Source of the DNA: Candidatus Latescibacterota bacterium
GTDB lineage: Bacteria > Latescibacterota > UBA2968 > UBA8231
NCBI GenBank assembly: GCA_965248265.1
Contig: CBDFJF010000001.1
Coordinates: 2,912,001-2,976,000 of the forward strand
DNA length: 64,000 nucleotides
Direction: 5' to 3'
Positions 5,759-33,435 of the stretch are shown piece after piece. The stretch's first letter is position 1. Every line of letters begins with the position of its first letter. Both the position numbers and the translations under genes were made by a program. Under the pieces are notes generated by a model, which worked only from the letters and a program-made list of their open reading frames with translations, made no database searches and was not told where the DNA came from.

Positions 5759-8071
5759 TCACTCTTCGCCGCTCTGTCCGCCGGCGAAGAAACTCGCTGC
5801 ATCCTGTGTAGTCCGAAACGCCTTCCGGAATGCCCGGGTTTCGTCCAGCAGGACGAGAAGCTTGTCGACGGCAGCGGACGCATCAACCACAGCACACCGC
5901 TCGAACAGGATCTCTCCAACCGCATCGCGCGTCGCCCGTACCCCCATCGCCGGCAGCACCTCCAACCCGGCGACCACCGTGCGCTCGCTGTGCGCCATGG
6001 CGCCGGCCAGTTTCTGCAGGGAGCTGCGACCTTGGTATTCAGCTAGCGTGTATTTCACCAGGCCACCCAACCGCTGCGTAAATGCCTCGTAAGAATCGAC
6101 GCCTTGATCCTTCGCGAACACGTAGATCTCTTCTGGCTTCACCCGCTCCAACACCATAGCGACCTCTCCCCGGCCCGGCGGGGCGCTCCAGACTACCAGT
6201 GTGCTACCTGTCGTCAACTCCGCTCGCGGCTTCGCCCTTTCGTGCTCAACTGCTTCACCCCAGATCTGCGGGTCTGCGGTTTCAGCAATAATCTCATCCA
6301 GCTTCTCGAGCGGGGCTGACTCCGCTCTGAAATCGTAGACAACGGCCTTTGTCCCCGCACTCTCCCCACCTTCCGCTCTTCCCGACCGCTCAAAGTCCTG
6401 CAAGGTGATCGACAGCGTCTGTTTCCCGCGGAAGAAACCGGGTCGCACGCGCACGACCATGTCCAAGCGTCCGTTTGGCAGGGCTTCATCGGCGCTGCTC
6501 CACCACAGGACCTCGCACTTGTGTCCGGCAAGGTCGCTGACGACCAGTTTTCGATGGGCCTTGTCCTTGCCGATCGGCCGGTCCTCTTCTACTTGCAGGC
6601 CAGGGCAGAGGATGTTGACGGGGGGATTCCCGGGGCCGAACGGCGCCAGCGCTTCCAACTGCAGGGCGGTGTCGAGGGTCAGCTCCTCCAGCGGCAGCTC
6701 GAGCTCGATGTCGACGGTCGGCTCCGGCGTTCGGCCCGTGCGCTGATCGATGAGGGCTTTTGACACACCGCGTCGGAACGCCTCGACGTTCCCCGCATCC
6801 AGCGATAACCCGGCTGCCATCGGATGGCCCCCGAAGCCCATCAGGATGTCGGATTGAGTCGCGATAGCTCGAGTGATGTGATAGCCCTCGACCGAGCGCG
6901 CCGATCCGCGTGCCGGTTTACCCTCCGGCGTCGTCAGCATGATCGTTGGTTTGCCGAACTCCTCCACCAGGCGACTGGCGACGATGCCGATGACACCCTC
7001 GTGCCACAGCGGATTGGCCAACACAAGAGCAGCGTACTGCCGCAGAGAAGGCTCCTGCTGCACCTGCGCCGCGGCCGAATCGTAGACGACGGAGGTCTCG
7101 AACTTGCGCTCTTCATTCAGACGCTCGAGCTGGTCGGCGATCTCCTTTGCCTGCGCTTCGTCCGTCGTCGTCAGCAGCGGTACCGAGACGTTGGCATCCG
7201 ACAACCGGCCGACCGCGTTGAGCCTCGGGCCAATCTGGAAACCGATGTCCTCGTCGTTGAGCAGATCCATTTTGACTCCGGCGTTGTCGGCCAGAGCCAG
7301 AAAACCGGGTCGCTCCGTCGAACGCAACACCTCCAGGCCGCGCTGCAGCAGGTAGCGGGTATCCCGTCGTTGGAGTGCCAGGTCTGCGACGATGCCGACC
7401 GCCACCAGGTCCAGGCAGCTCTCCAGCTCAACCGCGCGTCCGGCGCGCGTGAACAGCGCTTCGATGATCTTGTAAGCCACGCCTACGCCGGGAAGACCAC
7501 TCAATGGGTCATCTTCGGCATGGAACTTCGGATTGATCAGGGCGAAAGCCTTGGGCAACTCGTCAGGCAGGTCATGGTGGTCCGTTATTACGACATCGAT
7601 GCCGGCCTCGTGGGCAAAGGCGACGCTATCGACGGCGGCAATCCCGGTATCGCATGTGACCAGCAGGTCGAAACCCTTTTCGATGTAGCGCTGCAGGACC
7701 TGCGGCTGCACACCGTGCGACTCGTGCTGGCGGACCGGAATGTGGTAGGAAACATTACCCCCAATCCGCTCCAGCATGGAAACAAGCAATGACGTCGACG
7801 TCTGCCCGTCGACATCGAAATCACCCCAGACCAGAATGCGCTCGTTGTTGCGGATCGCCCGTTCGATCCGTTCGACACCGATCACCAGGTCGTGCAAGGT
7901 CTCTGGAGCGGCAGGGGTGTAGGCATCCGGATCCAGAAACGGCCGCACCTGTTCGGGGTCATCCATGCCGCGACCGGCCAGGACCTGCGCCACCAGTGGC
8001 CGGCCCGAAGTCGCATCGAGCAAAGACTGCGAGACCTCGGCGGCCCGGATGGGATTCCACTTGAGGTTCAT
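5759..8071 (-). CDS. recJ: ssDNA-specific exonuclease RecJ with long C-terminal extension
   Basis: GDFDVDG, TCDTG, ITDHH, GPRLNAVGRL, GSARS, GGHPMAAG, LAPFGPGNP. Confidence 0.95.
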   Translation of the reverse strand: MNLKWNPIRAAEVSQSLLDATSGRPLVAQVLAGRGMDDPEQVRPFLDPDAYTPAAPETLHDLVIGVERIERAIRNNERILVWGDFDVDGQTSTSLLVSMLERIGGNVSYHIPVRQHESHGVQPQVLQRYIEKGFDLLVTCDTGIAAVDSVAFAHEAGIDVVITDHHDLPDELPKAFALINPKFHAEDDPLSGLPGVGVAYKIIEALFTRAGRAVELESCLDLVAVGIVADLALQRRDTRYLLQRGLEVLRSTERPGFLALADNAGVKMDLLNDEDIGFQIGPRLNAVGRLSDANVSVPLLTTTDEAQAKEIADQLERLNEERKFETSVVYDSAAAQVQQEPSLRQYAALVLANPLWHEGVIGIVASRLVEEFGKPTIMLTTPEGKPARGSARSVEGYHITRAIATQSDILMGFGGHPMAAGLSLDAGNVEAFRRGVSKALIDQRTGRTPEPTVDIELELPLEELTLDTALQLEALAPFGPGNPPVNILCPGLQVEEDRPIGKDKAHRKLVVSDLAGHKCEVLWWSSADEALPNGRLDMVVRVRPGFFRGKQTLSITLQDFERSGRAEGGESAGTKAVVYDFRAESAPLEKLDEIIAETADPQIWGEAVEHERAKPRAELTTGSTLVVWSAPPGRGEVAMVLERVKPEEIYVFAKDQGVDSYEAFTQRLGGLVKYTLAEYQGRSSLQKLAGAMAHSERTVVAGLEVLPAMGVRATRDAVGEILFERCAVVDASAAVDKLLVLLDETRAFRKAFRTTQDAASFFAGGQSGEE

Positions 8072-8101
8072 GAGGGGTGGATGCGCTTCAGGTGAGGGTG
8101 C

Positions 8102-8944
8102 TCAAAACGCGATCGCTTCGTAGTCATCGAGATCCCCCAACTGCGAAGGCGCTTCCTCTTCGCTTTCGAGATCACCGTCGTCCAGGTACCCCGCCACACC
8201 CCCTCGGTCACAGAAGGAGCGGTACACGCAGAACATGCACTTCTTCTCATCCGTCGTGAGCCCGAACGAGCCCCGCTCGCGACTCAGGATCTCGTCGACC
8301 AGGCCACCCAGGTAGGCCTCGTCCTGGCCATACTGCTCCTCATTGTAGGCAAAGACCTCCGGATCATCCGGAAAATCCGAGTACCAGTAGACCATCTCGA
8401 TTTCGTCCGGCGTCAGCGGCTTGCCATCGGCGAGTGCTGCTCCCGCCTGAAGCAACAGGTAGGGATAGATCCGCGTCTGCAGTCGATCCGTCAGCCATTC
8501 TCTAGTGTGTCTGCGACGCCAGGTCTTCCAGTCAAAGATGCGGGCGCGGCGCATGTCTTCTGCATCACCATTGCCGATGACGATCAGATCACACGTCGCC
8601 ACTAGCGTGCTGACGCCGATGGTCCCAACCAGCGTCTTCTCGGCGAACCGCTCTCCATCGACATCAGCCGGCCGCTGCACCATATAACTGTTCCACCAGC
8701 GCGAGATATCGGCATCCTTGGCGGAATCAGGCACCGGCACCGAAATGCCCAACACGTCACGGTGAACCATTTCGTGGAAGCGGCGACCATCGACCATGTG
8801 GCGCTCGCTCTGCAGCAGCGGCTCGCTTTCCACCGCCGGCCACTTGAGCTCTTCGAGGTAGCTCAGTTCATAGCGGCGGGCGCAGTCGACGTAGGCCTGC
8901 AGGCTGTGGGCGCTGAAGGAGAGTTGTTTATCCGTCACTATCAC
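8102..8944 (-). CDS. Stand-alone PD-(D/E)XK (RecB/AddB-type) nuclease with Fe-S staple cysteines
   Basis: FSAHSLQAYVDC, CDLIV, IFDWKT, LQTRIY, CMFCVYRSFC; GTG start (8944 or 8938) overlaps the helicase stop. Confidence 0.85.
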   Translation of the reverse strand: MIVTDKQLSFSAHSLQAYVDCARRYELSYLEELKWPAVESEPLLQSERHMVDGRRFHEMVHRDVLGISVPVPDSAKDADISRWWNSYMVQRPADVDGERFAEKTLVGTIGVSTLVATCDLIVIGNGDAEDMRRARIFDWKTWRRRHTREWLTDRLQTRIYPYLLLQAGAALADGKPLTPDEIEMVYWYSDFPDDPEVFAYNEEQYGQDEAYLGGLVDEILSRERGSFGLTTDEKKCMFCVYRSFCDRGGVAGYLDDGDLESEEEAPSQLGDLDDYEAIAF

Positions 8945-11207
8945 GTGCCCCCCCCATCGAATCCCGCAGCGCCACAAAAGCGAGCGCCGGCTTGTTGCTC
9001 CCGCGGGGCCCGACATTGCTCGTCACCATCAGCTCCTTGCGCGCCCGCGTGATCCCTACGTAGAGCAACCGCAACCGCTCGCGTGCATAGTCATACCGCG
9101 CCTCCATTGTCGCCGAGCCCTCCAGGTACTCCGTACCATCTATGGCTGCATCGAGCTGGCCCAGGGTTTCGTCTGCCAGACTGAGATTATCCCTCACGAA
9201 CCAGCGCTCCGACCGGAAGCTGTCCGTCGGCTCGCCCGCGGGGAATTCATAGTCACTCACTGCCAGCAGGTAGACGCGGTCCCACTCCAGGCCCTTGGCC
9301 CCATGCATGGTCGCCACCACCACTTCGCCCTTGTGGGCCTCCGGCTCGAAGCCGGTCTTGTCGGTCTCGATCGAGCGCAGTTTGCGCTGGTCGCGGGCGA
9401 TGACGACGAGCTCGGCCTCCATCTCCGCCAGCGTCGTCGGCCGGCCTTCGACACCCAGGTTGTACTGCGAGCGCTCCTGCAGGATTTCCCCGAACAGCTG
9501 CGTCATCGCCAGCTTCTCCGGCTCGTCGAACAGATCCTGAGCGATCGCCGTGAGCAGCTCCCCGATCGGCAGCAGCACCAGGGCGTGCCAGCGCTGCAGC
9601 TGCTCGCGGAAGCGCTCGAAGTAGGACATCGTGCTCGCCGGAATCTCGCCCGTGCCCAGACCAGCACTCGATCCTTCTTCCCCTCCAGCCAGCGGCCAGA
9701 CGAACTCCTCGCTACGGACGCATCGCTGCAACAGCGTCAGATGTATTTCCAGCAGTTCCAGCCCCTCGTCCGATTCGGCTTCCTTCAACACCCGCGTGAA
9801 CCAGACCTTGTACACGGCGACCAGAGTCCGGTGGGCATCCGGATGCGCCAGGTGCTTGAGAATCAGGCTGAGAGCACCGGCCGCTTCCCGCGTCGACGTC
9901 GTCAGGCGCAACATCGCATCCGTACACGGCACCCGTGCCTTGCGCAGGATTTTGATCACTTCGGCCCCGCGCGCGTTCGTCGGCACCAGGATGGCGACGG
10001 TTGCGTCCCCATTGGCCGGCAGCCATTTCTTGATCGATTCCACGACCCGGACCAGCTCCGCCTCCGGTGATTCGTCGTTGAAATGGAAGGCCACTCTGCA
10101 GGCATCCTCCGGAGGATTGGGTTGCGGATCGCCCGGCGGCGTCGGTTCGATGTTGGGCAAGGAGAGCGCGCTGCGCATTGCTTCGACGGGGTGATCCTCA
10201 CTCGCCCAGCGGATCAGCTCGTTGGCCATGCCGATGATGGGCAACCCCGAGCGTCCTGAATTGGGTAGATCGTGCTTGGCGTCGGCTTCTTCCAGAAAGG
10301 CGCGCAGGTACTTCGGGTGCGCGGTGGTGAAGGTCTCGTAGATCGCCTGGTTGGGATCGCCAACGCGGACCCAGTTGCCGCCCTCGCCCACCAACCGGCG
10401 CAGAATCTGCTCCTGCAGGGCGCTGCTGTCCTGGGCTTCGTCTTCGAGAATGAAGGGCCAGCGCTGGCGCAGGTTCTCGACCAGGGTCTCATCAGCGTCG
10501 AGGGCGCGAATCGCCATCGTGATCAGGTCGTTGAAGTCGAGGGATGCCCGCGTTGCCAGACCGTGCTCGTAGCGCTCGTACACATCCACCGCCAGCTTGA
10601 TCAGCATGGAACTGTCATCCGTGAGCCGATCGCGTACGGCCTGCGGCGTCTGCTGGCGGCTCTTGAGGTGCGCGATGGCGTTGCCGACGACCTGTTGCAG
10701 CAGTGCGGGCAGATCGTCGGTGACAATCTTGCGCCGCCGGAAATCGTTCATGTCTTCAATCAGGTAGCGCGCCAGACCCTCTTTGTATCGCGGGTAGGAA
10801 GCGCGAAACGCCGTGCGCAGAATCGAGTCGGCGATACGCTCGTCGACGACGGAGAAGTTGGTCTCCAGTCCTACAATCGACGGCGACTGCGACACGATCT
10901 CGTGCGCCAGGCTGTGCAGGGTGCGCACCCGGTAACCCAGACCGGGGAGCAGACCCTGCTCGGAGAGAAACCCACCAATGCGCTGGCGGAAGTTGTCGAC
11001 GGCCGAATTGACCAGCGTCACGATCAGGACTTCCTGCCGGCCCTGCAGCGCCCCACTGGAGATCAGGGATACAGCGACCTGCGACAGGGTCCAGGTTTTA
11101 CCGCTGCCCGGCACCGCGGCGATGCCCATGGTGCCGCCGGCGTAGCCGAGGATGGCTTGCTGGGCGGGGCGCAGCTGGGTTGGGGAATGAGGCGAGGGTG
11201 ATGTCAC
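8928..11207 (-). CDS. UvrD/PcrA-like SF1A ATP-dependent DNA helicase
   Basis: AVPGSGKT, TLHSLA, EDEAQD, VGDPNQAIY, TMHGAKGLEWD, ERLRLLYVGITRAR. Confidence 0.93.
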   Translation of the reverse strand: MTSPSPHSPTQLRPAQQAILGYAGGTMGIAAVPGSGKTWTLSQVAVSLISSGALQGRQEVLIVTLVNSAVDNFRQRIGGFLSEQGLLPGLGYRVRTLHSLAHEIVSQSPSIVGLETNFSVVDERIADSILRTAFRASYPRYKEGLARYLIEDMNDFRRRKIVTDDLPALLQQVVGNAIAHLKSRQQTPQAVRDRLTDDSSMLIKLAVDVYERYEHGLATRASLDFNDLITMAIRALDADETLVENLRQRWPFILEDEAQDSSALQEQILRRLVGEGGNWVRVGDPNQAIYETFTTAHPKYLRAFLEEADAKHDLPNSGRSGLPIIGMANELIRWASEDHPVEAMRSALSLPNIEPTPPGDPQPNPPEDACRVAFHFNDESPEAELVRVVESIKKWLPANGDATVAILVPTNARGAEVIKILRKARVPCTDAMLRLTTSTREAAGALSLILKHLAHPDAHRTLVAVYKVWFTRVLKEAESDEGLELLEIHLTLLQRCVRSEEFVWPLAGGEEGSSAGLGTGEIPASTMSYFERFREQLQRWHALVLLPIGELLTAIAQDLFDEPEKLAMTQLFGEILQERSQYNLGVEGRPTTLAEMEAELVVIARDQRKLRSIETDKTGFEPEAHKGEVVVATMHGAKGLEWDRVYLLAVSDYEFPAGEPTDSFRSERWFVRDNLSLADETLGQLDAAIDGTEYLEGSATMEARYDYARERLRLLYVGITRARKELMVTSNVGPRGSNKPALAFVALRDSMGGARDSDG

Positions 11208-11278
11208 AGAGCCAGTTGCTTCCTGATCAACTGACAGAGGCTATCCTTGATCTCGTTGTGCCTTGGAACCGAGGCACG
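11204..11278 (-). pseudogene. HicA toxin C-terminal remnant
   Basis: Reads RASVPRHNEIKDSLCQLIRKQLAL*, matching the HicA VPRHxEI...KQL C-terminus; no start or N-terminal half; directly downstream of hicB. Confidence 0.75.
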
Positions 11279-11282
11279 GCGA

Positions 11283-11492
11283 TTACAGTTCCAGAGACAC
11301 CGATTTTGTGCTGACCGAGACGATGTCAGGTGGTGTATCTTCATCGGCCAACACGAGCCGGTAGGAATTCTGGATGTTCTGTTCGAGCTCATCCAGCGTC
11401 TCTCCCTGGCTGAAAACACCCGGCACTTCCTTCAACCGCCCGATGTACCAATCATCCTCAATCCAGTACTCAAGCGTAAACTGCCGTGACAT
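11283..11492 (-). CDS. HicB-family antitoxin
   Basis: FTLEYW...YIGRLKEVPGVFSQGETLDELEQNI. Confidence 0.9.
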   Translation of the reverse strand: MSRQFTLEYWIEDDWYIGRLKEVPGVFSQGETLDELEQNIQNSYRLVLADEDTPPDIVSVSTKSVSLEL

Positions 11493-11497
11493 GAGAC

Positions 11498-11770
11498 TCA
11501 GCTTAGTCGCTCGTTGGCTGCGGTGGACGCAGCGACAGTCGGCCGGCTTTCCAGGTAAAGTGTGTCATAGCTCAAATCAACTCCGCTTGGCCATTCCACT
11601 GAACCGGCCACGACCCTTGCCGCCTGGAAGCTCGCCTCGTTCTGCAGACGGACGAAGACTCCTCGGTTGAGATAAGGCGTCAAGTCGAATATCCGTTGTT
11701 CGCCGTTTTCGAAGACTAGCTCCAGCTGGTAATCGTTCAGCGGGTGTACGAGTCTCACGTGTGGATTCAC
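11498..11770 (-). CDS. DUF2442 protein (putative antitoxin)
   Basis: YQLELVFENGEQRIFDLTPYL...VEWPSGVDLSYDTLY. Confidence 0.85.
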   Translation of the reverse strand: MNPHVRLVHPLNDYQLELVFENGEQRIFDLTPYLNRGVFVRLQNEASFQAARVVAGSVEWPSGVDLSYDTLYLESRPTVAASTAANERLS

Positions 11771-11838
11771 AGGTGCTGCCTGTCATCAAAAAAATACATC
11801 CTGATCACAATACCATAAAACGTCGACAGAATCGGCAT
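11767..11838 (-). pseudogene. DUF4160 (putative toxin) N-terminal stub
   Basis: MPILSTFYGIVIRMYFFDDRQHL* (23 aa), a typical DUF4160 N-terminus that stops before the PHxH motif; stop overlaps the DUF2442 start. Confidence 0.8.
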
Positions 11839-11851
11839 TGGTACTTGCCAC

Positions 11852-11929
11852 TCAATGTACGGCTGTGAATGGGCAGATGCTAAGCGGTCTCACCCCGGCA
11901 CCCGGACAAAAATCAACGAGTGTGTTCAT
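11852..11929 (-). pseudogene. Possible VapC/PIN toxin stub
   Basis: ATG overlapping the RHH antitoxin 3' end reads MNTLVD (like the PIN beta-1 start), then unrelated sequence and a stop after 25 aa. Confidence 0.4.
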
Positions 11930-12176
11930 CCGACAGCGCCTCGCCCAAGTGCCAGTCATGTTCGACAGCGCCAGAGGTGTCCAGACTCTCACCGAGGCCG
12001 ACGATGGACATGAAGACGTCCCTGGTGAATTGCTGCTGCTCGGTGTCACCAGCCAGATAGTCGGCGACAAGCCCGCGCACCAACTCAGCCATCGAGACAT
12101 TCTTCCTGCCTGCCGCGAGTTTGAGCCTGCGATGGTCGGCGGGATCGAGATAGATCTGCAGTCGCACATAGCCCAT
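11913..12176 (-). CDS. Ribbon-helix-helix (CopG/VapB-like) antitoxin
   Basis: RLQIYLD...VSMAELVRGLV RHH domain; C-terminal SIVGLG...EHD as in VapB-type antitoxins. Confidence 0.8.
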   Translation of the reverse strand: MGYVRLQIYLDPADHRRLKLAAGRKNVSMAELVRGLVADYLAGDTEQQQFTRDVFMSIVGLGESLDTSGAVEHDWHLGEALSDEHTR

Positions 12177-12186
12177 GGCGCATCTC

Positions 12187-12462
12187 CTACCCGTACCGCT
12201 CCACGTACAGATCCAGCACACGCCGCACCATCTGCTGATAGGGCATCCCGTGCTTTGATGAGTTGCGCTTGAAGAACTCGACGCTTCGCTGGCTCAGATT
12301 GAGCGTCACCTTCACGGTTTCTTCCTTCAAGAAGAGTTGCTCCGGCGGCGGGAGGAAATCCTCAACAGTTTCCGCTTCGTCGATTGCTCTGGCGATTTCG
12401 AGGGGAGCTGCTACGTATTTCGCTCGCGCCTCACGTACTCGAGTCGTCTTTTTGGCCATCAT
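12187..12462 (-). CDS. BrnA/CopG-family antitoxin
   Basis: DFLPPPEQL, VKVTLNLS...VEFFK, PYQQMVRRVLDLY; overlaps brnT. Confidence 0.85.
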   Translation of the reverse strand: MMAKKTTRVREARAKYVAAPLEIARAIDEAETVEDFLPPPEQLFLKEETVKVTLNLSQRSVEFFKRNSSKHGMPYQQMVRRVLDLYVERYG

Positions 12463-12718
12463 ACCTTCTCCTTCCTTCGCGCCAGTACCCGGCCCCGAAA
12501 ATCCTGATCCGATTTGCCCGCATCGTGAAACGGACCGTCAGCACCCTTTCATCCACCAGACCGAAACAGAAGTACCGAGACTCCTTTGCAGTCGAGTGCT
12601 TGCGATCTCTGGCAATTACCCGGGCGGGATCTAGAAATGCTCGTTGTGCCTCTGCGAAGGACACACCATGCTTGCGCACGTTTTCCGCATCCTTCTGGTC
12701 GTCCCATTCGAAGTCCAT
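12431..12718 (-). CDS. BrnT-family ribonuclease toxin
   Basis: FEWDDQKDAENVRKHGVSFAEA...LTVRFT...IRIFGAGYWR. Confidence 0.9.
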   Translation of the reverse strand: MDFEWDDQKDAENVRKHGVSFAEAQRAFLDPARVIARDRKHSTAKESRYFCFGLVDERVLTVRFTMRANRIRIFGAGYWREGRRRYDGQKDDSST

Positions 12719-12721
12719 GCC

Positions 12722-12749
12722 GTATGTATATGTGGATGTCTATACATAC
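12722..12749. promoter_or_regulatory. Inverted repeat, probable brnTA operator
   Basis: GTATGTATA-N10-TATACATAC perfect 9-bp inverted repeat immediately upstream of the brnT ATG. Confidence 0.6.
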
Positions 12750-12802
12750 AAATATACAGAGACGAGTAGGGACGGCAAGCCCGCCGCGCGTCATCCCCAC
12801 GG

Positions 12803-14923
12803 TCACACTTCATACACCCCCTCAGCCTCCGGCACCACCCCCAACCCCCGCAACGCATGCCCAAGCGCCACCAGCAGATCCCCCGTCTGCTCCTGCCCAT
12901 GCGCGCTGAGTTCGCTATTAAACAGGTACACCGAGTCCGTGCAGCGCCTCACCAACCCCGAAACCATGCACGTAAGCCTCTCCGTCTCGAACTTCGCCTC
13001 CCAGGCCGATGACCATTCCTCCTCCTGGGTGTTCCAGTCACGGCTGAGCACGTAGGGGTTGGTCAGGGGTTGATGGATGCGCCGGTGCCAGGCCGGCGAT
13101 CCCACATCCAGCCACAGCTGATGGGCGTAGGTGCGATTGCGCAGCAGGAAGGTGTGCGCCGGCGCGATCAGGACTGAAGTCGATGGATCCGCCCAGTTCA
13201 TCGAGTAGAACGCGGAGACGACGCCCTCCTGCACCATCTCGACGTAGGCTTTGCCGACGGCTTCACCCTCGTCCCCCGAGGCCTCGGCCACGGCGCGCCG
13301 GAATTTCTGCGCCGATTCGACCAGACTGGCCACCTGCATGCCGGCCGGCACGTCCTTGTGGAACCCGAAGCCGGGCTGGCTCAGCACCTCGCCGAACAAG
13401 CGGCTGAAGAACAGGTCGACGGGCAGATCCTCCTCGCTCTGATATTCCTCCAGCCAGGATCGCAGGACCTCGTAGCTCTCTCCCACGCGATAGGTGATTC
13501 GGTCGCGCGCTTGTGACGCTATTTCTTCGAATGACTTCAAACCGACTGCTTCATGCACTCCCTCGTACGCGACGGAGGCCAGCAGCGCCGCGCGCACCAG
13601 GTCCGCCGCACCAAGGAGCCGGTCGAACATGTGGGTGACCGCCTCCGGCGACGGCCGTTCCAGCCGCCATGACGGGTGCGCGAGCGCGGCCAGGGTCAGC
13701 AGCACCTTGGTGACCGGCTCGTCCCGCAGGGTCCGCGAGGGACGATGCACGTAATGGCTGATCTGCGCCGTGTCGAGACGCGTCGACAGGCCATAGTAGA
13801 GACTGTCGTTGAGGAACGGAGAGATGATGGCGATCTGAGCCGGCTCAATGCCGTTCTCGATCAGCTGCTCGACCTGACCCGTGACCCGCTGCACCATCTG
13901 GTGATGCAGCCGGTCGGAGAACACCTGCACGCGCCGCTTGTCGTCATTGTCAACATCACTGACTGCCCCGGCATCCGGTCGATCGCCAATCGCATCGCAC
14001 AACCTGCGCCCGAATACCTGCAGCGACTCCGGTACCGTTGCTGTCGATTCGATCAACTGACTGGCCGCGCACTCCTGCTTCAGCGTGTAGGCACTCAATG
14101 GATTGGCCGCGAGGAATTTTCGGAAGCCGGCATCACAGTCGTAGAGGATGAGGACGGATTCCAGTCGAGAATCGTCGTGGTTCATCCACAGGCGCACGAT
14201 GTCATGCGCCAGCGGAATGTCCTCCTCGCAATTGTCGTAGACGAGATGACGGTGCTGTCCGAACAGGTAATCGCGCAACGGCTGCGAGTGCCGGACCAGA
14301 TCCCAGAACAGGGTCAAATACAGCGAGAAGTCGAGCAGGTTGCCCTGCGCGCACAGTTGCCGGTAGGCCGCCACGGTGTTCGAGATCTCCTCGACGTGAC
14401 CGTCCGAAAGCTCGGTGCCGATCCTTGCTGAGCGCAGATAATCGCTCAACGCATCCAGGGGGATATAGTTGACGGCCGCCTTGTTGAGATTGTCCAGCAG
14501 CTGCGAGTAGAGCCGGTGCCGCGTCAGCTTCAGGTCGGCGAAGTACCCCTGTTCTATTAGAGGGGACACCAGCCGCGCCATGAAGTACTGGGCCACTTCG
14601 TAGGTCAGGAAGGTCGGCTCCTGTCCCTGCACGAAAGGATACTTCGACTGCGCCAGCACCTCCGGCCAGAACAGGGAGACATAGCGACGTGCCAGGCCTC
14701 CGATCGTCGCTTTGCCGAGGCCGTACCACGAGCGCTGATCGAAGGCTTCTTCGTAGGCGAGGGTGTAGCTGCGGTGGGGGGTGAGGAGGAGGATCCGGTC
14801 GGGCGCGACGCCATCGTCGATGAGGGAGCGGATGCGCTCGATGGCCTGCGTGGTTTTGCCGGCGCCGGCGGGGCCTTCGAGGAAGAGGGTCGGTTGGGTA
14901 TCGGGAGTCACCGCGGCCCACAT
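12803..14923 (-). CDS. SF1 helicase-like protein with degenerate Walker B (AdnA/AddB-like partner subunit)
   Basis: Walker A EGPAGAGKT and GVAPDRILLLT present; motif II reads VYDNCEED; later motifs eroded; no nuclease domain. Confidence 0.75.
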   Translation of the reverse strand: MWAAVTPDTQPTLFLEGPAGAGKTTQAIERIRSLIDDGVAPDRILLLTPHRSYTLAYEEAFDQRSWYGLGKATIGGLARRYVSLFWPEVLAQSKYPFVQGQEPTFLTYEVAQYFMARLVSPLIEQGYFADLKLTRHRLYSQLLDNLNKAAVNYIPLDALSDYLRSARIGTELSDGHVEEISNTVAAYRQLCAQGNLLDFSLYLTLFWDLVRHSQPLRDYLFGQHRHLVYDNCEEDIPLAHDIVRLWMNHDDSRLESVLILYDCDAGFRKFLAANPLSAYTLKQECAASQLIESTATVPESLQVFGRRLCDAIGDRPDAGAVSDVDNDDKRRVQVFSDRLHHQMVQRVTGQVEQLIENGIEPAQIAIISPFLNDSLYYGLSTRLDTAQISHYVHRPSRTLRDEPVTKVLLTLAALAHPSWRLERPSPEAVTHMFDRLLGAADLVRAALLASVAYEGVHEAVGLKSFEEIASQARDRITYRVGESYEVLRSWLEEYQSEEDLPVDLFFSRLFGEVLSQPGFGFHKDVPAGMQVASLVESAQKFRRAVAEASGDEGEAVGKAYVEMVQEGVVSAFYSMNWADPSTSVLIAPAHTFLLRNRTYAHQLWLDVGSPAWHRRIHQPLTNPYVLSRDWNTQEEEWSSAWEAKFETERLTCMVSGLVRRCTDSVYLFNSELSAHGQEQTGDLLVALGHALRGLGVVPEAEGVYEV

Positions 14924-28983: not shown

Positions 28984-30159
28984 TTATGAGCTGACCGGCG
29001 CCAGCAATTCCACCAGCGGCGCGTAGCAATAGCGTCGGTTTCTCTTTCTTCCGGTGATCTCGCGCAGGATGCCCAGTCCCTCGAGCTTGCCCACAAGCTG
29101 ATTCGCATTCGCGAAGGTTCTCCCCGTGGTAGCTGCAACCGTGCTGACCGACTGCAGCGGTCGCACTGCCATGGTCTCGACGAGCTTTAGTGCCAGGCGT
29201 GTGCTGGCACCCTTCAGGCTTTCTCCTATCAAATTCCGGTCTTTTGCTATCTGTTTCTCAATATTTTCGATAATAATCAGGTTATCCGTCGCTGCCTCGG
29301 TAGCTGCCTGCAGAAAGTAGGCGAACCAACTCCTCCACTCACCCTGTTCGCGGACCTGCTGCAGCTGCCGGAAGTGTTCGGCCCGATCGCGGTTGAAAAA
29401 CGCCGACAGACTCAACATACTGGCGCGCACACCCGGCTGCCGACTGAACAACAGCGGGATCAGCATTCTTGCCACCCGGCCGTTGCCATCGACGAATGGA
29501 TAAATGGTTTCGAGCTGATAGTAGGCGATGGCGACCTTCAGGCACGGCGCTATGGCGGTGTCGCTGGCGGTCAGGAACCGCTGCAGCGCCGCCATCGCAT
29601 CTCCAACCAGGCCAGGTGCCGGAGGAACGAACCAGGCGGTCTCGAAGGTGCTGCCGGCGGGGCCGATCCAGATTTCCGAGTCTCTGAGCTGACCGGGAAG
29701 GCTGTCACGGCCGCGCACCCGTCGAAACAGTTGCGCATGAAGGGCACGAACCAGCCTCGTCGAATAGCCCTGCTCCGCCATTACCCGCGCACCTAGGTCC
29801 CAGGCCTCGAGATAGTTGGCAGCCAGCCGGAGTTCCCCACGGAGGTCGGCGTCCGCTTCCTCCAGCCTTTGGTCCGCCCGCCACCACAGCAGCTGCGCCA
29901 GCGTAACCTGTCCGCCTTCCATGCGGTTGGAGAGCACGGACTCCCGCAACAGCATCAACTCGGCGAGGAACGCTCCCCCGTCCGCAAGTGCTCTCACGTA
30001 CCCACTCAGATTTCCCAGTGCTCTATCGGCGACTGATACAGCTTCCCAGAGTGCAGAATCCAGTTGCAGCTGCTCGTTTCGAGCCAGCGAAGGTGGCAGC
30101 AGCACGATCCCCGGGCGTTGACGGCGCTGAGTTGGACGAGTTTCCCCGGGCGAATTCAC
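28984..30159 (-). CDS. Fic family protein (Fic_N + Fic + C-terminal HTH) with non-canonical motif
   Basis: RESVLSNRMEG, PGQLR, ETIYPFVDGNGRVAR, GILREITGRKRNR. Confidence 0.9.
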   Translation of the reverse strand: MNSPGETRPTQRRQRPGIVLLPPSLARNEQLQLDSALWEAVSVADRALGNLSGYVRALADGGAFLAELMLLRESVLSNRMEGGQVTLAQLLWWRADQRLEEADADLRGELRLAANYLEAWDLGARVMAEQGYSTRLVRALHAQLFRRVRGRDSLPGQLRDSEIWIGPAGSTFETAWFVPPAPGLVGDAMAALQRFLTASDTAIAPCLKVAIAYYQLETIYPFVDGNGRVARMLIPLLFSRQPGVRASMLSLSAFFNRDRAEHFRQLQQVREQGEWRSWFAYFLQAATEAATDNLIIIENIEKQIAKDRNLIGESLKGASTRLALKLVETMAVRPLQSVSTVAATTGRTFANANQLVGKLEGLGILREITGRKRNRRYCYAPLVELLAPVSS

Positions 30160-30204
30160 AAGAGAAACTCAGGCGATCAAATTTTTGTTCATGATTATGT
30201 CCAT

Positions 30205-31041
30205 TTATCGATAATATCGGCGCAAACGTGCCCATTCGTCCAGAAAAGCCTGCAGGTGGTCTCGGCCCGGCTTCTCCAGCTCCCTTTGCAGCAGCTGCTG
30301 TACCATTTCCTGCTCCTGGCTGTACTCTTCAGACGTGAAAAATCCGGCGAAGTGCGCTACCCGGAGCCACAGGAGATAGGTTGTGAGGGCGTCAAGCTCG
30401 TTGTAGGCGACGATACGGCCGATCTCGCCAGCCATCCACAGATCAACCACATCAGCCCCGGATTCTGAGAACTTGCCGGGTATGCCGCAGACCGTGGCCA
30501 TCTCGTGCAGAGAGGGTCGGCCGCGACCGCGCCCTCCCAGAATGTCGAAGAGGTCGACGTGCCAATCGTTGCCTCCGAAGTAGTCGACTCCCTCCCAGGG
30601 CTTGTCCGGCCGTTGGGCAAAGCCTGGCACCGATACCCCCGCACCCACACCCCGCTGCACCAGGATGCGCAGATCCGCTGCCCCTGAATTGAAGCCGACC
30701 AGCTGTGGTTGGTTCTTGCCGACTCCCTCGAGAAAGCGGAATACCAGGTCGGCTTCGTTGATTTCACCTTCGTCGTGCGAAGGCAGCGAGTTCAGCTGCA
30801 GGCGCACCTCGCCGTCCTCCAACCTGCGACCGACCATGGCAATTGAGACAATGCGACACAACACCGTCTTCAGGTACGGACGTGGATCTTCCTCCGTCGC
30901 CCCACCGCGGCGCCACATTTCCTCCGTGACCTGTGCCGGCTCCATGCTTTCTGGCAGGTCATATACCATCCGTCCAGAGTGCGGATCGGGCACCCACTCG
31001 GCATCGAACGCCCAGACCCTCTCGTGTACTCGCTTGAACAT
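30205..31041 (-). CDS. Stand-alone 3'-5' exonuclease (PolB exonuclease-like)
   Basis: AFDAEW (ExoI), VGFNS..AD (ExoII), YNELD (ExoIII). Confidence 0.85.
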   Translation of the reverse strand: MFKRVHERVWAFDAEWVPDPHSGRMVYDLPESMEPAQVTEEMWRRGGATEEDPRPYLKTVLCRIVSIAMVGRRLEDGEVRLQLNSLPSHDEGEINEADLVFRFLEGVGKNQPQLVGFNSGAADLRILVQRGVGAGVSVPGFAQRPDKPWEGVDYFGGNDWHVDLFDILGGRGRGRPSLHEMATVCGIPGKFSESGADVVDLWMAGEIGRIVAYNELDALTTYLLWLRVAHFAGFFTSEEYSQEQEMVQQLLQRELEKPGRDHLQAFLDEWARLRRYYR

Positions 31042-31173
31042 TAACTTTATTTACCCATCAGAGGCATAATTCACTAAATTATCCATCCGGAATTCTGGCG
31101 AGTCGATTGAGTCACCACCCGGGCAGGCGCATTTCCCATTCCCAGCAAGCGCGGCCCAGAAGGAGAGTCTCCC

Positions 31174-31698
31174 ATGTCGTGGGTAACCTACGGCCTTTGT
31201 GCGGTCGTCGTACTTCTGATAATCCTGGTCATTTATCAGTACCTGATTCAGCGCGCCGCGTTGCGCATCGGTGAGATTCTCTACGTCATGGCCGGCAACG
31301 TCCGCGCCAAGGCAACGGAAGTCCGCCGGGACGGCAAGGACGTCGAGATCATCGAGGCTCACCTCTTCGATATCGCCACGTCGGCCCGCAGCATCCTGAG
31401 AGCTCTGGGACGCAGCGAAGAGTCTCTGGGGCCGGACCCATCCCTTACCGTTTCGACCAATGGCAGCAGCCGCATGTCGGCGGACAGCCTGCTGCGCCTG
31501 GCTGACAACATCTTCTTCTCCGTCTCCGAAGAGCAACCCGACGCCGCTTTCGAGGATGTCCAGAACGCGGCCCTTGAACGGTTTCTTAAGAAAGTGCCGA
31601 ACATGGATGCGGAAGCGGCGCGCAAGATCGTCAACGTTGTCGCCCATCAATCCCGCAAGGACAGCAAGCAGCCTTCCTTCGCCCAGGCACGCGCCTGA
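31174..31698 (+). CDS. Hypothetical protein with N-terminal transmembrane helix
   Basis: AAGGAG RBS before ATG; hydrophobic N-terminus. Confidence 0.6.
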   Translation: MSWVTYGLCAVVVLLIILVIYQYLIQRAALRIGEILYVMAGNVRAKATEVRRDGKDVEIIEAHLFDIATSARSILRALGRSEESLGPDPSLTVSTNGSSRMSADSLLRLADNIFFSVSEEQPDAAFEDVQNAALERFLKKVPNMDAEAARKIVNVVAHQSRKDSKQPSFAQARA

Positions 31699-31709
31699 AC
31701 CTCCAACAA

Positions 31710-32083
31710 TTATATCGAGACGTATCCCTGCCGCGTTGACCACAGCCCCTTAGCGGCCACCCGGTCTCCGCTTATTCTTTCCCAGTAGCGTGCGTACGAT
31801 TCCACCTGCACGCCGTGGCGCGACGTGTCTACTGCCTCCGTTTTGTAGTCGACGATCTTCCAGCCTCCGTCTGCCACCCGGAAGACGAGGTCGATGACTG
31901 CTCTTCCGCGTGATTCGACGGGGTGACGGCACGCAGATTCGCCCAGTCACAACCGGCCAGGGCGAGCGCCGTCGTCATGTTGTACCCGGCTTGTATGCTG
32001 GGCACGAACAGGATCTTGGGAGCTATCGGGTGGGACCTGCAGAGCGAGCGGAGTTGGGCAAGGTGGTGAGGTAGGGGGGCCAT
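31710..32083 (-). pseudogene. Deletion scar: AddB-like N-terminus joined to AddA/RecB nuclease C-terminus
   Basis: MAPLPHHLAQLRSLCRSHPIAPKILFVPS...WANLRAVTP; then in another frame AVIDLVFRVADGGWKIVDYKT...QVESYARYWERISG...GLW...* ending at 31710. Confidence 0.75.
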
Positions 32084-32085
32084 CC

Positions 32086-33435
32086 TCAGGTAAAGAACTC
32101 GGCGTACAGGGAGCGCACGGCAGCGGGCACATCCACTTCCTTGACCCCGAACATCATGCTGACTTCGCTGGATCCCTGGTTGATCATCTCGAGGTTGATG
32201 TTGGCCTTCGCCAGCGCACCTGTGGCGCGGGCACAGAGTCCGATCGTGTGCTGCATACCTTCGCCGACGACCATGACCAGCGCCAGGCTGCGTTCCACCG
32301 TCACTTCGTCAGCTTCCAGCTCCGTGCGAATACGGCGCAGGACTCGCTCCTCGACCGCGTGGGGGAAAAACTCCTCGCGCGCGATCACGGAAATGTTGTC
32401 GATCCCCGACGGAGTATGCTCGAAGGGAATTGCTTCATCTTCGTAGATCTGCAGCAGGCGCCGGCCAAAACCAACCTCCCGGTTCATCAGGTAGCGGCTG
32501 ACGTAGACGCTGCAGAACCCGCCCGTGGCAGCAATCCCTACGACTGGCTGGTCTCCGACCTCGCGCTCGCGGACGATGCGGGTGCCGGGGCCTTGCGGAT
32601 TGTTCGTGTTCTTTACTTCCACCGCTATACCTGCATGAAAGACCGGTTCCAGCGCCTCATCGTGGAGCACGGAGAAGCCAGCATAAGACAGCTCGCGCAT
32701 TTCCCGGTAGGTGATCTCCGCAACTGGTTTCGGATCATCGACGACACCGGGGTTGGCGGCGAACACGGAATCCACGTCGGTGAAGTTTTCGTACAGGTCC
32801 GCATCGACGGCAGCGGCCAGGATGGCGCCGGTGATATCGGAGCCGCCGCGCGGAAAGGTGACCAGTTTTCCCGCTTCCGAATAGCCGAAGAAACCGGGAA
32901 ACACGCTGATACCGGTGCGCTCGCGCAACTGTCGCAGCTTGCCGTAGGACTGGCGCAAGACTCGTGCGTTGCCGGGTTCATCCGACAGAATCATGCCGGC
33001 TTCACGCGGGTCGATGTAGTGGGCTTCGTGACCGCACTGACGCAGGTGCTCGGCCACCAGGCGAGCGCAGTTGGCCTCTCCCGCCGCTTTCATCCTGTCC
33101 GTGAACGAGGACTCGTCAGCCGGATCCTGTGACAGGCGGCCGTCGAGGTCTTCGACGACAGCCTGTATCGACTCCGGAGGCAGACTCAATCCAGAGGCGA
33201 TTTCGGCGAAGCGTTCCTTGACGCGGTCGAGCTCCGGTTCGCCGGAGTGATTGGTCAGGCGTGCATCCGCAGCCTCGATCAGCAGATCGGTCACCTTGGT
33301 GTCCGTCGCCGATCTCTTTCCCGGGGCCGATACCACGACCAGCCGGCGCTCTGGCTCGCTGGTGATGATGTCACACACCGACCTGATCAAGCCGGCGGTG
33401 GCCAGGGAGCTACCGCCGAATTTCGCCGTTTTCAT
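32086..33435 (-). CDS. lysC: Aspartate kinase
   Basis: KFGGSS, VVVSAPGK, RGGSDITG, TDVD, ELSYAG, ACT domains; ATG overlaps the upstream stop. Confidence 0.93.
   Translation of the reverse strand: MKTAKFGGSSLATAGLIRSVCDIITSEPERRLVVVSAPGKRSATDTKVTDLLIEAADARLTNHSGEPELDRVKERFAEIASGLSLPPESIQAVVEDLDGRLSQDPADESSFTDRMKAAGEANCARLVAEHLRQCGHEAHYIDPREAGMILSDEPGNARVLRQSYGKLRQLRERTGISVFPGFFGYSEAGKLVTFPRGGSDITGAILAAAVDADLYENFTDVDSVFAANPGVVDDPKPVAEITYREMRELSYAGFSVLHDEALEPVFHAGIAVEVKNTNNPQGPGTRIVREREVGDQPVVGIAATGGFCSVYVSRYLMNREVGFGRRLLQIYEDEAIPFEHTPSGIDNISVIAREEFFPHAVEERVLRRIRTELEADEVTVERSLALVMVVGEGMQHTIGLCARATGALAKANINLEMINQGSSEVSMMFGVKEVDVPAAVRSLYAEFFT

Follow-up and report, generated by a model that had tools for sequence, protein, structure and literature searches.

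The likely remnant of an addB-addA operon directly downstream of lysC in a Latescibacterota genome

Directly after the aspartate kinase gene lysC of a Candidatus Latescibacterota bacterium there are about 370 bases (31710-32083, minus strand) in which two short open stretches follow one another in different frames. Are these small genes, an error of assembly, or what is left of something larger? The window analysed here is a 64,000-nucleotide stretch of contig CBDFJF010000001.1 (GCA_965248265.1), from an assembly of 7.32 Mb in two contigs with an estimated completeness of 92%. An earlier, sequence-only reading of the window had proposed that an addB-addA operon collapsed at this point, that the native resection enzyme was thereby lost, and that the module at 5759-14923 could be its non-orthologous replacement. 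The stretch, hereafter the scar, is very probably the non-functional remnant of an addB-addA operon that lay after lysC and was reduced by a single deletion of about 6.2 kb. The features of the locus are as follows.

32086-33435, minus strand: lysC, aspartate kinase, intact (NCBIfam NF006540, 595 bits against a cut-off of 434; Pfam AA_kinase and ACT)
31901-32083, minus strand: addB remnant, the first 61 codons with native start context, aligning with residues 1-61 of AddB-like proteins
31898-31901, minus strand: deletion junction, with addB-derived sequence to 31901, addA-derived sequence from 31898 and two bases between (31900-31899)
31710-31898, minus strand: addA remnant, the last 62 codons with the native stop, aligned with four AddA-like C-termini (last ~65 residues)
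31829-32083, minus strand: chimeric 84-codon frame, the product of the deletion, with 61 codons of AddB, then 23 out of frame before a stop
31174-31698, plus strand: convergent 174-codon gene with a hydrophobic N-terminus, bounding the scar downstream

The likely start of lysC is MKTAKFGG, residue 114 of the listed open reading frame, and its stop (32088-32086) is followed two bases further on by an ATG (32083-32081). This ATG opens 84 codons (frame A, 31829-32083) containing KILFVPS...WANLRAVTPS, as the sequence-only reading had recognised, and the first 61 of these codons align with the N-termini of AddB-like proteins. The closest readable relative, the metagenome contig L043, is 81% identical to the addB remnant over 58 residues, and the region around the ATG is identical in the two. 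One base out of register, frame B runs through ..AVIDLVFRVADGGWKIVDYKT..QVESYARYWE.. and ends with a stop (31710-31712). It retains the nuclease motifs IDLV and DYK together with Q..Y, and its alignment with AddA-like C-termini runs from the IDLV motif through the native stop, so that the RecB/AddA nuclease C-terminus with its own stop seen in the sequence-only reading is indeed there. Frame A alone matched zero families in a Pfam search, and frame B matched Pfam PDDEXK_1 with E=4.9e-4 and 20.6 bits, slightly short of the 22-bit cut-off; the match covers positions 125-182 of the 247 in the profile. In protein searches of 40 related genomes, 20 gave matches to the N-terminal piece at E<=0.01 (best E=4.7e-16) and 23 to the C-terminal piece (best E=8.2e-15), so that both halves match AddB- and AddA-like proteins and, by sequence comparison, do so far above chance. 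An AddB profile matched the scar with E=3.3e-31, and tblastn with three AddB and three AddA proteins of relatives placed the scar at AddB residues 1-60/71 and AddA residues ~1005/1012-1076. A promoter and terminator scan of 31000-32300 found nothing at the scar.

The point at which one gene gives way to the other can be located closely. By protein alignment the addB part ends after residue 61 (..HAEE), and the nucleotide alignment with L043 holds as far as 31901, with noise past that point. A switch of frame near 31905 had been proposed; the switch is real and its position is 31898-31901.

In relatives, the two pieces are the outer ends of two full-length genes. The N- and C-terminal matches lie on one contig and strand in 13 genomes, 6.1-6.5 kb apart (compared with 0.37 kb in the window), with the N-terminal piece at the start of an open reading frame of ~1000-1100 residues and the C-terminal piece at the end of one of ~1070-1190 residues. 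Together with the contigs that bridge the junction (see below), this spacing agrees with the proposal that several kilobases were lost between the beginning of addB and the end of addA. Open reading frame maps of the genomes G017, G027 and G024 and of L043 show that addB and addA are adjacent and co-oriented. The two matches are on separate contigs in G038, G020 and G019. The addB-start and addA-end matches of G032 and G025 (family f2) are millions of bases apart on the same chromosome, as against the usual ~6 kb, and in both the operon seems to have been split.

The pair found in relatives is of AddAB type by architecture and fold, and belongs to a distant subfamily. The AddA-like open reading frames of G017, G027 and G024 combine a UvrD helicase (PF00580, E=2e-48 to 7e-52) with a PD-(D/E)XK nuclease (PF12705) near the C-terminus, and in NCBIfam they match addA_Gpos and addA_alphas best (E=1e-63 to 4e-74). 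The AddB-like open reading frames have a C-terminal PD-(D/E)XK domain (PF12705, E=3e-31 to 7e-42) and also match addB models. One cysteine lies in an LETLAxCP region before the nuclease core and a Cx2Cx5C group follows the core near the C-terminus; in 15 sequences C745, C1009 and C1018 are invariant and C1012 is nearly so. This is the pattern of the iron-staple nuclease of AddB (PMC3321194, in excerpt), and the AddB-like proteins are predicted to bind metal through it. A structure model of the L043 AddB-like protein (pLDDT 75.1, from a 15-sequence alignment) gave AddB chains at Foldseek ranks 1 to 5 (3u4q_B, 4cei_B, 4ceh_B, 3u44_B and 4cej_B; E=1.2e-24 to 9e-23 over ~1100 columns, TM 0.41-0.44), with AdnA and RecC next. 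The equivalog cut-offs of NCBIfam were not reached, with 223-250 bits for addA_Gpos (cut-off 707.65; the cut-offs of the addA models range from 707 to 861 bits) and 35-84 bits for addB_Gpos (cut-off 903.7). Scores below all of the addA and addB cut-offs indicate a distant AddAB subfamily. Compared with AddAB of Bacillus subtilis (PDB 3U4Q; PMC3321194, in excerpt), the intact pair of the relatives shares gene order and domain plan: AddA consists of an SF1A motor and a RecB-family nuclease, and AddB of a helicase-like N-terminal part and a four-cysteine nuclease. It differs from the B. subtilis enzyme in that the relatives' sequences are far from the curated families and in that the genome studied here (G000) retains 61 and 62 codons, and the enzyme is not made.

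The position of the intact pair in relatives matches the position of the scar. In G017, a member of the same family, a single contig carries a sulfatase gene, lysC, addB, addA, purM, a gene for a PolB-exo2-like exonuclease and a Fic gene. The window has lysC, the scar, the convergent 174-codon gene, and then the same exonuclease and Fic genes. L043 has an MBL-fold gene, a DHDPS-like gene, lysC, addB and, at the end of the contig, the start of addA; its identities to the window are 89% for lysC, 85% for the DHDPS-like gene and 76% for the MBL-fold gene, and its addB is intact (1102 residues) with a start five bases after lysC. In L044, whose lysC is 75% identical, addB likewise follows lysC. 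There are thus three relatives with lysC directly upstream of addB, the arrangement that the sequence-only reading had suggested looking for in close relatives: G017 has both genes intact, L043 an intact addB and the start of addA, and L044 addB. Across 80 metagenome loci with a lysC relative, the lysC-addB linkage occurs in only two, and it is missing in G015, G011 and G001, where lysC is followed by purM, the 174-codon gene and an unrelated gene, respectively. The deletion in G000 is separate from the removal of the operon from the lysC locus of G015 and G011, since closer relatives of G000 keep the operon. The 174-codon gene belongs to no family in Pfam, NCBIfam or PADLOC; G011 has a homologue at the same place with 76% identity.

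Could the operon be intact in the organism and ~6 kb have been collapsed by the assembler? The assembly has two contigs and comes from a sample that also holds related organisms, with contigs of runs X1 and X5 that are 84-85% identical to the window, and the junction was checked by contigs rather than raw reads. X1 to X4 are four runs of one sample, probably the source sample of the assembly, and each contains the complete stretch. Separately built contigs from two of these runs cross the junction. Record 1 of X1 spans 30000-32389 with 0 differences and a depth of 14.4 at the junction, equal to that of the flanks, and record 7 of X3 spans 30000-32767 with 0 differences and a depth of 5.7, again equal to that of the flanks. 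As a check made on contigs, this is independent of the assembler, not of the data, and is compatible with a minor intact allele. A search for repeats in 31500-32300 gave only short ones, no more than chance would produce, and none able to cause an assembly collapse, and AddB or AddA sequence was found nowhere else in the assembly. Taken with this evidence, a collapsed assembly is a very improbable source of the scar. The same search returned an 11-base inverted repeat flanking the junction (31875-31885 / 31902-31912), one of six such pairs, which we took to be a chance occurrence.

A deletion in the organism may be dated by contigs of X5, a run labelled as another organism. These contigs are ~94% identical to the window. 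Record 16 follows the window from 32389 to 31901 (30 differences in 489), after which come 3326 bases that are unlike the window, and record 15 begins with 2870 bases unlike the window and then matches from 31898 down to 31335 (34 differences in 564); it covers the 174-codon gene and extends into the addA side. The two run-on stretches total 6196 bases, compared with 6182 expected from the G017 operon minus the 372 retained bases. From these lengths and from L043, the ~94%-identical relative appears to have retained the operon in full. As its contigs part from the window at exactly 31901 and 31898, the deletion postdates the split from this relative if the X5 operon is intact, and on the same condition both remnants would still be open and undecayed because the deletion is young.

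The open frames have also to be weighed as genes in their own right, either as functional small genes or as a mini-protein joined by frameshifting and kept by selection. Neither frame has an internal stop, the native start context after lysC has been kept (identical to that of L043), and the nuclease piece retains the IDLV, DYK and Q..Y motifs. That piece nevertheless covers only profile positions 125-182 of 247, lacking the first catalytic motif and the whole helicase, and the only plausible start lies in another frame. The short form occurs in none of the searched relatives, which have full-length genes, decayed copies or nothing, and open frames would be expected anyway if the deletion is young. 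We consider selection for the two pieces scarcely credible, and no function is expected of the chimeric 84-codon frame. The scar is instead a pseudogene remnant of an ordinary kind that is unusually clean and seems to be young, and in annotation 31710-32083 should be marked as such and not as two small open reading frames.

The sequence of events was very probably as follows. An ancestor carried an addB-addA operon directly after lysC, encoding an AddAB-type helicase-nuclease that resects double-strand breaks. One deletion of ~6.2 kb then fused the first 61 codons of addB, with a one-base shift of frame, to the final 62 of addA, leaving coding capacity for only an 84-residue chimeric peptide and placing the nuclease fragment outside any translated frame. 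The deletion itself is evident at the locus, and its recency would follow from the ~94%-identical relative that apparently has the full operon. An illegitimate or end-joining type of event involving little or no microhomology seems the probable mechanism; an end-joining origin is possible, Ku being present in the genome.

The loss of the native enzyme, as proposed from the sequence alone, is consistent with a search of the whole assembly, which found no intact AddAB or RecC elsewhere. In tblastn searches the three AddB proteins of relatives matched the scar only and the three AddA proteins matched the scar and weak UvrD paralogues. The AddB profile at E<=1e-10 had the scar as its sole match, the addB_Gpos model had zero matches, addA_alphas matched only UvrD-type helicases, and RecC (PF04257) had none at E<=0.01 with a positive Escherichia coli control. 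What was found of addB and addA in the assembly is AddB residues 1-61 and the last 62 residues of AddA, with no full-length translatable copy of either gene. The other UvrD-family matches in G000 are open reading frames without a RecB-type nuclease, and read as putative PcrA/UvrD-like, helicase IV-like, RecD2-like and Upf1-like proteins. RecQ, RecO and RecR are present above their cut-offs, and RecJ and Ku are present. With no other AddAB or RecBCD in the assembly, end resection must fall to other enzymes. Candidates would be the gene set at 5759-14923, RecQ/UvrD with RecJ and RecOR, or both, and Ku-dependent end joining would be a further route. Elsewhere on the same contig, an 803-residue open reading frame (G000:C1:3099329-3101737, minus strand) has an N-terminal PD-(D/E)XK match of 29 bits followed by a helicase body that reads like a DinG/XPD-type helicase.

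AddAB is clearly patchy within the family. Among 24 same-family genomes searched with the AddB profile, close AddB proteins, full or truncated by contig ends, were found in eight, and nine had no match at E<=1e-10. Two genomes have AddB copies broken by stop codons (G012:C41 and G023:C99), and G023 has an intact addB too, on another contig. The addB and addA matches at these two loci (G012:C41:32481-37583 and G023:C99:11866-15717) contain several stop codons and shortened open reading frames and look like further decaying copies in one genus, in fragmented assemblies where sequencing errors are possible. In five genomes, open reading frames of 1057-1140 residues match the profile over its C-terminal part only (E=1e-18 to 7e-35; G002:C1:3758045-3759529, G018:C1:2974163-2975137, G013:C203, G010:C1:1286413-1287225 and G012:C65), and the family may thus have another AddB-like type that is more distant. 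G003 and G004 have only short partial matches to the C-terminal region (E=3e-12 and 8e-18) in small open frames. AddB is found in all 12 genomes of family f2 and in none of the three of family f3. The scar fits this picture of AddAB decay and patchy presence across the family.

The module that had been suggested as a replacement for AddAB consists of four genes on the minus strand.

12803-14923, minus strand: 706-residue protein with a UvrD/AddB-like helicase fold and without a nuclease domain (weak Pfam UvrD-helicase match, E=4.5e-6)
8928-11207, minus strand: UvrD-type SF1A helicase, 759 codons as listed (Pfam UvrD-helicase, E=1.1e-42; UvrD_C, E=3.5e-18)
8102-9016, minus strand: stand-alone 304-residue PD-(D/E)XK nuclease with the cysteine pattern Cys...Cx2Cx5C (Pfam PDDEXK_1, E=4.7e-19, full profile length)
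5759-8071, minus strand: recJ (NCBIfam TIGR00644, 494.8 bits against a cut-off of 396.9)

A motor helicase, a RecB-family nuclease and a helicase-like partner are thus encoded together (8102-14923), and from its sequences and a structure model the module does look like an AddAB/RecBC-like helicase-nuclease. The helicase is below every NCBIfam equivalog cut-off. The model of the 706-residue protein (pLDDT 84.6) gave Foldseek matches to UvrD (E=1e-20), AddB (3u4q_B, E=2.4e-18, TMq 0.60), AdnB (9np6_B, TMq 0.65) and RecB chains. The Walker A motif of the 706-residue protein is preserved in the window and in near relatives, and is degenerate in distant orthologues. Sequence searches of the PDB with this protein, the 304-residue nuclease and the AddB-like protein of G017 returned only pentatricopeptide low-complexity matches. 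In comparison with AdnAB and RecBCD (PDB 9NP6, 6PPR and 1W36), the modelled 706-residue protein is predicted to share the folds of AdnB, AddB and RecB, and the module resembles RecBC in having one clear motor, one nuclease and a helicase-like partner. Unlike AdnAB and RecBCD, it has a partner devoid of any nuclease or nuclease-like domain and keeps its nuclease, which has an AddB/Cas4-like cysteine pattern, as a protein of its own (304 residues); a RecC or RecD-type arrangement was not found. The nuclease match of G017 falls within an open frame of 1097 residues, probably a predicted fusion to the helicase. Look-alikes of the 706-residue protein in a protein atlas are unnamed clusters of ~700-residue UvrD-domain proteins, and serve as leads only. 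We also considered a defence-system reading of the module and rejected it; PADLOC gave only generic UvrD/GajB-type matches for the helicase and none for the nuclease or recJ.

Was the module acquired as a non-orthologous replacement, its acquisition allowing the loss of addBA? Its content would suit such a role (a UvrD-type motor, a PD-(D/E)XK nuclease, an AddB-like helicase-fold partner and recJ), other AddAB or RecBCD enzymes were not found in the assembly, and the two systems are roughly complementary by family, with AddB in 12/12 genomes of f2 and 0/3 of f3 and the 706-residue gene in 0/12 of f2 and 2/3 of f3. Within the family, however, the 706-residue gene is found in 18 of 24 genomes. 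The module occurs in seven of the eight genomes with an intact close AddB (G001, G005, G014, G017, G019, G023 and G024, not G020) and in only six of the nine without an AddB-like match. Its identity to relatives (77/67/67/64%) tracks that of lysC (78/72/~75% in G015, G001 and G011), as expected under vertical descent, and the order 706-residue gene, UvrD-like gene, nuclease gene and recJ is kept in all four close relatives examined (G015, G001, G011 and G016). This distribution, identity and gene order indicate that the module predates the loss of addBA. Being ancestral in the family and coexisting with intact AddB, it was not brought in to replace AddAB, and the earlier suggestion of an acquired substitute is improbable.

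The module may rather be a pre-existing parallel system that possibly made AddAB dispensable. That the four-gene set, with its stand-alone nuclease of iron-staple type, is an undescribed, AddAB-analogous end-resection machine that makes canonical AddAB dispensable in this bacterial family is a tentative idea, which we hold to be possible rather than likely. If true, it would explain why AddAB was deleted here, why G015 and G011 have no such operon at lysC, and why it appears broken by stop codons in G012 and G023. This conserved, unnamed helicase, nuclease and RecJ gene set, a candidate alternative resection machine, is the most interesting lead to come from the locus.

The bacterium usually cited as a precedent for this situation is Deinococcus radiodurans, which has no RecBC and depends on RecFOR together with RecJ and UvrD. 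Like D. radiodurans, the genome studied here is without AddAB or RecBCD and has RecJ, UvrD-type helicases, RecO and RecR. It differs from D. radiodurans and its RecFOR/RecJ/UvrD route (PMC2806897, in excerpt) in that recJ is linked to genes for a dedicated helicase, a nuclease and an AddB-like partner, a set whose activities are predicted. More widely, 88% of bacterial genomes encode RecBCD, AddAB or AdnAB, and AddAB pseudogenes occur in some Staphylococcus, Burkholderia and Bordetella (PMC6452273, in excerpt), so that a dead AddAB is a known kind of thing. As in those cases, a free-living bacterium has lost its main break-processing enzyme and the broken gene is still visible. The scar differs from them in being one clean ~6.2-kb deletion with both ends preserved, as opposed to scattered point mutations, and in that a ~94%-identical relative seems to keep the operon. 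The result is a natural AddAB knock-out that is dated and delimited to within four bases, with an apparently AddAB-positive relative ~6% diverged, and it offers a ready comparison of what a large-genome, free-living bacterium loses without AddAB.

Several smaller features of the window and its relatives were also recorded. Small genes of toxin-antitoxin type lie between the 706-residue gene and the module helicase gene (11498-12718, minus strand):

12431-12718, minus strand: BrnT
12187-12462, minus strand: BrnA/CopG-like antitoxin
11913-12221, minus strand: ribbon-helix-helix open reading frame
11498-11770, minus strand: DUF2442

The corresponding space in G001, G011 and G016 is too small for such genes. 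In G015, the closest genome by module identity (G015:C1:2285006-2298113), ~8 kb separate the module helicase and nuclease genes, which suggests an insertion between them. At the scar locus there is no purM (31041-31174 in the window), although G017 and G011 have one between this locus and the exonuclease gene. The sole purM of G000 above the cut-off is on the other contig (C2:883584-884567) and is ~30% identical to the syntenic purM of G017. Besides the addB-addA deletion, the locus has undergone a further, separate loss or displacement, that of purM. Within 28984-31041 (minus strand) the Fic gene (PADLOC SoFic, E=3.7e-78) adjoins the gene for the PolB-exo2-like 3'-5' exonuclease (PF10108, E=3.5e-53), and this pair is kept together in G017 and G011.
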